Origin: a virus
Taxonomy: Duplodnaviria > Heunggongvirae > Uroviricota > Caudoviricetes
DNA: 41,033 nucleotides
Direction: 5' to 3' (one strand)
IMG/VR virus record: IMGVR_UViG_2541047701_000006
How positions within the stretch are numbered: position 1 is the stretch's first letter; every line of letters begins with the position of its first letter. Positions 29,632 through 30,240 of the stretch are shown here, in pieces. The position numbers were made by a program, and so were the translations under genes. The notes under the pieces were generated by a model, which ran no database searches, was not told the DNA's origin, and saw only the letters and a list, made by a program, of their open reading frames with translations.

Positions 29632-29695
29632 TATAACTACTTTAATCAAGTAGGGTTATTGAGTGGTAAAGTTTGTGCTGAATGTAGGAGAGAAT

Positions 29696-30184
29696 ATGAA
29701 GAAAATGTTTATATTGTTGTTGGCTGTAGGACTGCCATTAAACTCCTTTGCGAAGCCAGTAACGGAAAAGCAGCTTGCTACATACTTTATAGATAACGTT
29801 AAAACTTCAGCGGATAAGAATATAGATCTAGATGTAGAGGGAATAAATAGACTGTCTGTAATATGCCCAGCAAAGTCGGCAAGTGGAACTCTTTTAATAA
29901 AAAAAACATCCTACGAGTTTAATAAAAGCATTGGTGCTTTTGATTTTGAAAATAACTCACAATCTGCACCATTGACTTTTATTGTACCAATTAGTGAGGA
30001 TGAAAATAACTTTGACTCGGAAATTATTGGTTTCTCTTTTGCATTTAAAATGCCAAGAGGGCAATTCTTTGTTGATGTTACGAAAACAGGGAAGGTAAAG
30101 GCTGGCGTAAATATTAGTGGTGAAAGCGGAATTACTTATTCATCATGTAGAATAGATACTCATAATGTTGATTATGATCGTTAA
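29696..30184 (+). CDS. Secreted or periplasmic protein of unknown function (AT-rich moron inside tail cluster)
   Basis: Signal peptide MKKMFILLLAVGLPLNSFA then a mature domain; start set at MKKMF (ATG 29696; track ORF starts at 29663); visibly AT-rich; own terminator at 30199-30226. Confidence 0.55.
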   Translation: MKKMFILLLAVGLPLNSFAKPVTEKQLATYFIDNVKTSADKNIDLDVEGINRLSVICPAKSASGTLLIKKTSYEFNKSIGAFDFENNSQSAPLTFIVPISEDENNFDSEIIGFSFAFKMPRGQFFVDVTKTGKVKAGVNISGESGITYSSCRIDTHNVDYDR

Positions 30185-30198
30185 TTTTATTACCTAAT

Positions 30199-30226
30199 AA
30201 AAAACCGCGTTTACACGCGGTTTTTA
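30199..30226 (+). terminator. Rho-independent terminator after moron
   Basis: AAAAACCGCG-TTTAC-ACGCGGTTTTT. Confidence 0.7.
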
Positions 30227-30240
30227 TTTGAGGTGACGCC

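Follow-up and report, generated by a model that had tools for sequence, protein, structure and literature searches.

The window analysed here, the whole stretch of 41,033 nt, is a lambdoid, Q-antiterminated E. coli prophage that carries a Mu-like contractile tail, an HK97-type head, a holin and a GH19 endolysin. Since the integrase at the prophage end (38434-40657) abuts dusA, the prophage is a dusA-integrating element. Its tail genes encode a sheath, a tube, a chaperone, a tape-measure protein, gpN, gpP and a baseplate. A preliminary description of this DNA had singled out an AT-rich gene lying between the tape-measure and baseplate genes and preceded by its own RBS, and both observations are correct: the gene, here called orfX, has a GC content of 0.342, it sits between the tape-measure stop at 29631 and the gpN start at 30241, and an AGGAG motif precedes its start codon (Table 1). 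The same frame and the same start are found in the PGAP annotation of E. coli FDAARGOS_1059 (WP_000738065.1).

Table 1. Features of the orfX region and of the surrounding prophage, in window coordinates
Feature	Position	Strand	Remarks
orfX	29696..30184	+	Predicted exported-protein gene, 162-aa precursor; ATG at 29696, stop at 30182-30184
Shine-Dalgarno AGGAG of orfX	29686..29690	+	5 nt 5' of the ATG; read from the sequence
Signal peptide coding region of orfX	29696..29752	+	MKKMFILLLAVGLPLNSFA; predicted cleavage between SFA and K
A8 homopolymer within orfX	29899..29906	+	A7G in 21/21 close relatives; site of frameshifted database variants
Intrinsic terminator of orfX	30199..30229	+	GC stem and U-run; bidirectional form
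gpN RBS (GAGGTG) and variable gpN 5' end	30230..30316	+	gpN ATG at 30241; travels with the cassette
AT-rich segment differing from empty-site relatives	29625..30316	+	Limits of megablast homology to SfIV / E. coli CX21
Tape-measure gene, left flank	27730..29631	+	PF10145 at 5.9e-42
gpN / DNA-circularisation (baseplate hub-associated) gene, right flank	30241..31614	+	PF07157 at 1e-33
Q-type antiterminator of the late operon	13982..14734	+	PF03589 at 1.1e-53
Invertase/resolvase	37430-38020		PF00239 at 1.8e-51
Tyrosine integrase	38434-39531	-	Directly abuts dusA

Comparing orfX with its flanks, as the preliminary description had proposed, showed that the gene is foreign in GC content, GC3 and codon usage. 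Its GC3 is 0.264, while the ten neighbouring tail genes range from 0.49 to 0.59 in GC and from 0.53 to 0.66 in GC3, and the late region as a whole has a GC content of ~0.54. When the codon adaptation index was scored on these ten genes, orfX reached 0.52 and the tail genes 0.67-0.80. The gene is also the lowest-GC 489-nt stretch of the window (0.3% of such stretches are equally low), and the probability that 162 stop-free codons arise by chance at this composition is ~1e-6. Just 3' of the tape-measure stop, an inverted repeat (CTACTT-TAATC-AAGTAG, 29638-29654) is found that is not followed by a U-run.

Several other features of this prophage were recorded along the way. The lysis cassette and the terminase genes are separated by an AT-rich ORF of 106 aa (17126-17446), after which comes a terminator-like hairpin at ~17450-17490; the ORF matches the T3SS regulator GrlR in Pfam at borderline strength (E 6.6e-6, 26.7 bits for a cut-off of 26.8) and looks like a second moron. 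Directly 3' of the Q antiterminator gene, a low-GC ORF of 108 aa (14816-15142) has no Pfam match and carries at its 5' end a terminator-like hairpin (~14845-14870), as expected of a late-promoter/tR' region; a moron was reported at the equivalent place in SfIV (PMC3851460). Between the genes for the major capsid protein and the head-tail connector, a hairpin of -21.9 kcal/mol followed by a T-run (23491-23526) is another internal terminator or attenuator of the late operon. Finally, short ORFs on both strands lie beside the invertase gene, downstream of the baseplate genes (35287-38020), which suggests an invertible tail-fibre region resembling the Mu G segment, and a RefSeq relative has a truncated stfP annotated in this invertase-adjacent region.

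The orfX product and its predicted fold

The precursor begins with MKKMFILLLAVGLPLNSFA, and cleavage after this sequence would leave a mature protein of ~143 aa (15.8 kDa, pI 5.2) starting with KPV. The cleavable signal peptide noted in the preliminary description holds up as a prediction, since an n-h-c organisation recurs in 12 homologues whose signal-peptide sequences differ, position -1 being Ala and position -3 being A, S, T or V. That the protein has no recognisable domain was confirmed as well, as sequence searches of Pfam, NCBIfam, PADLOC and the PDB with orfX and 14 family members returned nothing significant. The best matches of these family searches (Pect-lyase at E 0.037, ferritin at E 0.2 and PapF at E 1.3) were taken as chance, and none of the 14 family members matched an anti-phage defence profile of PADLOC-DB at E up to 1. 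orfX does belong to phrog_5586, which it matches over its full length (E 1.5e-84, residues 1-161 of 161) and which is itself a family with no assigned function; a literature search on the RefSeq accession found no paper mentioning the protein and no functional assay of a family member.

With an alignment of 15 sequences, AlphaFold returned a model (pLDDT 83.9, pTM 0.77) made of an N-terminal helix (residues 24-41) and an eight-stranded up-and-down beta-barrel; with three sequences alone the pLDDT was 39.8, and it was the addition of remote homologues that raised it. Apart from the cleavable signal peptide, no hydrophobic helix is present in the model, in which the barrel is of the soluble type. 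Foldseek searches of the PDB and of BFVD gave no match with E below 0.01. All family members share two cysteines: Cys57 directly follows strand 1 (52-56) and Cys151 belongs to strand 8 (147-153). A disulfide would staple the barrel closed once the protein has been exported to the periplasm. As modelled, the orfX product is a member of a small and uncharacterised family of predicted exported beta-barrel proteins of temperate enterobacterial phages. An allele with 49% identity (P0007; L031:6995-7050) has a GTG start and a signal peptide, MIKPFLMTVAILTSCCAQA with K as the next residue, that contains a possible lipobox (LTSC), so that its product might be a lipoprotein; this lipobox occurs in no other lineage.

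A barrel of this kind, with cysteines at strands 1 and 8, is also what is found in the MliC/PliC lysozyme inhibitors and in Neisseria ACP, which are exported to the envelope and have eight strands with a disulfide between strands 1 and 8 (PMC5507604). Compared to MliC/PliC, Brucella PhiA and Neisseria ACP, the orfX protein has an extra N-terminal helix and is ~50 residues longer. MliC/PliC proteins are further characterised by the motifs SxSGAxY in loop 4 and YxxxTKG in strand 6 (PMC5507604), and an SASG sequence at residues 61-64 of the orfX protein led us to consider that it might belong with them. This membership was rejected: SASG lies in the loop between strands 1 and 2 and no AxY comes after it, strand 6 (QFFVDVTKTGK) is at most loosely similar to YxxxTKG, none of 14 family members has a Pfam MliC match, and when hhalign was used to compare the orfX family with an alignment of the E. 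coli, P. aeruginosa and Brucella MliC/PliC proteins, the signal peptides alone aligned (probability 11%).

These comparisons bear on the idea that orfX is host-fitness or virulence cargo, encoding a periplasmic inhibitor of animal lysozyme, MliC/PliC- or ACP-like, that protects the lysogen in the gut or in tissue. We consider this unlikely. The predicted export to the envelope, the modelled eight-stranded barrel and the position of its cysteines would fit such an inhibitor, as would the carriers of orfX, which include APEC, STEC and clinical isolates, and ACP demonstrates that the family motifs can be absent from a lysozyme inhibitor with this fold (PMC5507604). Against this stand the lack of profile similarity, an SASG that is not in loop 4, the absence of YxxxTKG and the fact that E. 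coli already has its own mliC. The orfX protein may still work in the same way as MliC/PliC, and it is probably a periplasmic binder or inhibitor.

Occupants of the tape-measure/gpN junction

Escherichia phage vB_EcoM-720R4 has the same arrangement as the window, orfX included, at 99.7% identity, and it was the only one of 50,697 phage records in which tblastn detected orfX. The isolated phages SfIV, SfV, SfII and SfI lack it. A look for empty sites in related prophages, as had been proposed, was successful: SfIV, whose tape-measure protein and gpN are 99% and 98% identical to those of the window, has a gap of 24 nt in place of orfX, the same 24-nt gap separates the two genes in E. coli CX21, and the flanks of SfIV and CX21 are 97-98% identical to those of the window. 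Among 5,426 complete E. coli genomes, a related gpN is present in 1,094 (~1/5), and ~100 of these also have orfX. An APEC O78:H51 strain has a copy of the orfX-bearing tail module on a plasmid of 204 kb (NZ_CP126947.1 185379-187279, hit H46).

A profile run against 1.84 billion representative proteins to find more distant relatives gave 16 related clusters (at 50% identity), and the family is confined to temperate phages of enterobacteria; two profile searches of a database of 5.8 billion proteins found no further family members, nor did tblastn against plasmids and phages with the distant homologues as queries. The positions of the homologues, located by scans of IMG/VR and GTDB, fall into two groups. 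Homologues with 49%, 44% and 32% identity occupy the same tape-measure/gpN junction in three other tail-module lineages, in which the tape-measure protein and gpN are each 53-72% identical to those of the window. These genes are also AT-rich (GC 0.36-0.39 for flanks at 0.48-0.57), each has its own terminator, after which comes the gpN RBS, and the motifs FKMPxGQFFVDV and AGVNxNGESG are retained in their products along with the signal peptide and the cysteine pair. Homologues with 27-30% identity, in turn, lie on phage-plasmid-like contigs beside genes for ParA, a CI-type repressor, IncFII RepA and toxin-antitoxin systems, and a terminator is found there too. Two of these distant homologues, on phage-plasmid-like contigs (L004 ~690-716; L006 ~2880-2905), share an AT-rich element, TTATTT(T)AAATAAATATTTAAT, just 5' of the RBS, which may be a conserved promoter or operator.

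That tail modules of four diverged lineages have the gene at the tape-measure/gpN junction could be taken to mean that orfX encodes an assembly or structural component of this type of tail. The preliminary description had itself raised a conserved tail component as the alternative, and the distribution argues against it, given that orfX is absent from SfIV, SfV, SfII and SfI and from ~90% of the genomes with a related gpN. SfIV is an infectious phage isolate whose host range was determined (PMC3851460), and since its flanking proteins are near-identical to those of the window, orfX is dispensable for making phage. In addition, the Sec-type signal peptide is predicted throughout the family, so that the product should leave the cytoplasm, where tails assemble, homologues are found outside tail modules, and copies disrupted by IS1 or frameshifts are common. 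The reading as a tail component is thus largely refuted, and we would now give it hardly any credence: as far as these genomes can tell, orfX is not a tail part.

Megablast homology to SfIV and E. coli CX21 ends near 29625 and resumes at 30310-30316. At both ends, the segment that differs from SfIV reaches into coding sequence: it takes up the last codons of the tape-measure gene and ~24 codons at the start of gpN, whose N-terminus differs over ~24 aa. Since this segment extends into both flanking genes, it would have been moved by recombination between related tail modules rather than by a clean insertion, and the pattern points to an exchange of cassettes. The view of orfX as inserted foreign DNA can be kept in part: it is extra and compositionally foreign relative to SfIV and CX21, but a simple recent insertion does not account for the diverged homologues in the same slot or for the differing ends of the tape-measure gene and gpN.

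The same junction has other occupants in other prophages. In E. coli S51 (L057:2379-2909) it contains an unrelated gene for a 176-aa membrane-anchored protein with a GC content of 0.343 and a terminator, in E. coli 042 (L056:2562-2948) an OB-fold gene on the opposite strand with a GC content of 0.388, and in UTI89 a terminator (L055 ~2925-2955) and no gene. A promoter-like sequence, TTGCTG...TAGAAT, belongs to the S51 gene. Altogether, the tape-measure/gpN junction of SfV/SfIV-like lambdoid prophages looks like a recurrent hotspot for cargo, and orfX is, from the genomes compared, a long-term and exchangeable occupant of this slot, not a fresh insertion. Hotspots for defence genes have been described in P2- and P4-like elements.

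Within its close clade, orfX shows more amino-acid changes than the neighbouring tail genes. Between close alleles, its pN/pS is 0.64-0.94, when the sheath, tape-measure, gpN and gpP genes of the same genome pairs are at 0.05-0.25 (Fisher p 8e-5 to 7e-4, with small counts). This excess of amino-acid changes fits a target in an arms race or, equally, weak constraint. Damaged copies also exist. In E. coli PEC122, a 768-bp IS1 interrupts the signal-peptide region (L059:707-1474; window-equivalent ~29729-29737), and a 99% identical IS1 has inserted independently near codon 35 of the 49%-identity allele on an IMG/VR contig (L035:6043-6810); in addition, frameshifted and internally deleted variants are found, and a Pantoea copy (L009) has no intact N-terminus. 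The A-tract appears to be one site of such damage: the window allele reads ATA AAA AAA ACA, with Thr71, while 21/21 close relatives have seven A followed by G, and Ala71; three database variants (P0008-P0010) look like frameshifts from A8 to A7 and a fourth, from a complete E. coli genome (P0006), like one from A7G to A6G. The tract could be either a slippage-prone site of pseudogenisation or a means of phase variation.

A pN/pS near 1 in the close clade, together with the IS1 insertions, frameshifts, internal deletions and the Pantoea copy, might suggest that orfX is merely a decaying and functionless remnant of horizontally acquired DNA. We find this very improbable, as homologues with as little as 27-32% identity have intact reading frames and conserve the signal peptide, the motifs and both cysteines, the fold is confidently predicted, all 21 close copies from IMG/VR and phages are intact and an open frame of this length is so rare by chance. 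Deep divergence has left the signal peptide, the cysteines and the core motifs in place, so orfX must be constrained in the long term.

Transcription and possible roles of orfX

Downstream of orfX, a hairpin at ~30199-30225 is followed by TTTTTATTT. Its predicted folding energy is -14.5 to -18.7 kcal/mol (z -4.3 to -4.6) and 0/200 shuffles were equally stable, in agreement with the strong terminator seen in the preliminary description. A simple terminator scan missed this hairpin because A/U runs lengthen its stem, but our own scan recovered it on both strands; Rfam gave sub-threshold matches alone for the orfX region, and these were caused by the terminator hairpin. A GC stem with a U-run directly 3' of the stop codon is found in 8/8 family members examined, and the stem sequences are unrelated to one another. 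Such a terminator within the tail operon does not have to interrupt lytic expression, given the gene for a Q antiterminator in the window.

The region that the preliminary description had suggested for a search (29632-29695) contains no match to the sigma-70 consensus according to a promoter scan, and by eye this 64-nt spacer shows weak hexamers at most. No sigma-70 consensus promoter was found 5' of the homologues in the three other lineages either, and in one of them (L041) the homologue starts only ~20 nt after the tape-measure stop. A weak or non-consensus promoter may lie inside the 3' end of the tape-measure gene. Since four lineages show no promoter and the L041 spacer is so short, it could also be that orfX is expressed only with the late operon; and because UTI89 has a terminator at this junction without a cargo gene, the terminator need not indicate transcription that is specific to a moron.

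For these reasons, a purely late-expressed role stays a live rival: orfX would be a late lytic gene without independent expression, transcribed along with the tail genes, whose product is exported shortly before lysis for the benefit of the phage's own cycle and may mask receptors or cell debris, which would keep progeny from being lost, or modulate the envelope or lysis. The orientation along the late operon, the strong Shine-Dalgarno sequence and a position that is conserved across diverged tail modules are in line with such a role, as are the lack of a promoter in four lineages and the ~20-nt spacer, and late transcription would be certain in a Q-antiterminated operon. On the other hand, most close relatives lack orfX and are viable phages, the distant homologues are located in regions of plasmid maintenance and immunity and not in late operons, the codon usage is poorly adapted compared with late genes, and the terminator, kept in 8/8 members, has no obvious role for a gene that depends purely on Q. 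On balance, we judge this role improbable.

Morons in the sense of Juhala and Hendrix are extra DNA of deviant composition with their own promoter and terminator and expressed from the prophage (PMC3594210). orfX corresponds to this definition in being extra DNA between two adjacent genes, in its base composition and in having its own terminator. The closest parallel is gp15 of HK97, a superinfection-exclusion protein that is encoded by a moron beside the tape-measure gene in the tail operon, is expressed from the prophage and was the founding moron (PMC3594210). HK97 gene 15 and orfX are both AT-rich extra genes next to the tape-measure gene of a lambdoid tail operon and both have products that are, or in the case of orfX should be, targeted to the envelope. 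They differ in that gene 15 lies upstream of the tape-measure gene and encodes a small YebO-like inner-membrane protein, whereas orfX lies downstream and would encode a soluble exported beta-barrel of 143 aa, a distinction that is drawn from our model and from the published description of gp15.

More generally, orfX resembles genes for envelope or periplasmic cargo that lambdoid prophages carry in among their late or tail genes. Classical lysogenic conversion genes of a late region are lom and bor of lambda and the prophage gene sodC. Lom forms an outer-membrane barrel, Bor is a lipoprotein and SodC is an enzyme; these proteins and their folds are unrelated to that of orfX. Lom is also mentioned in PMC3594210.

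Taking the distribution, composition and terminator together with the predicted export, we favour, at somewhat better than an even chance, the interpretation that orfX is an accessory cargo gene of the moron type residing in a recurrent tape-measure/gpN slot, and not a part of the tail. During lytic growth, RNA polymerase modified by Q would pass the terminator and leave expression of the downstream tail genes unaffected, while transcription that is independent of Q, such as might occur in the lysogen, would give expression of orfX and end ahead of gpN. There is about one chance in three that the barrel binds and neutralises a protein acting in the periplasm. A candidate for this target would be the tail tip or tape-measure apparatus with which a superinfecting phage penetrates the envelope, another a peptidoglycan hydrolase coming from a phage tail, from the animal host as lysozyme or from a bacterium as a secreted effector. 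With a phage-directed target, the outcome would be superinfection exclusion, for which HK97 gp15 is a precedent (PMC3594210).

A more far-reaching proposal, which we put forward as possible although rather doubtful, is that orfX founds an uncharacterised family of periplasmic beta-barrel inhibitors, encoded by phages, that block envelope penetration by superinfecting phages, by binding their tail tip, their tape-measure protein or a peptidoglycan hydrolase associated with their tail, and that the tape-measure/gpN junction of Mu-like tail modules is a dedicated and exchangeable slot for exclusion genes that act on the envelope, comparable to the hotspots of P2- and P4-like elements.

For annotation, orfX is useful in any case, and as ordinary prophage cargo a moron of this sort would be no surprise to phage biologists. 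If its product is indeed an exclusion factor or a hydrolase inhibitor, a small and easily testable family would be added to the envelope defences encoded by prophages, and the tape-measure/gpN junction of a very common type of E. coli and Shigella prophage would then be a place in which to seek more such genes.
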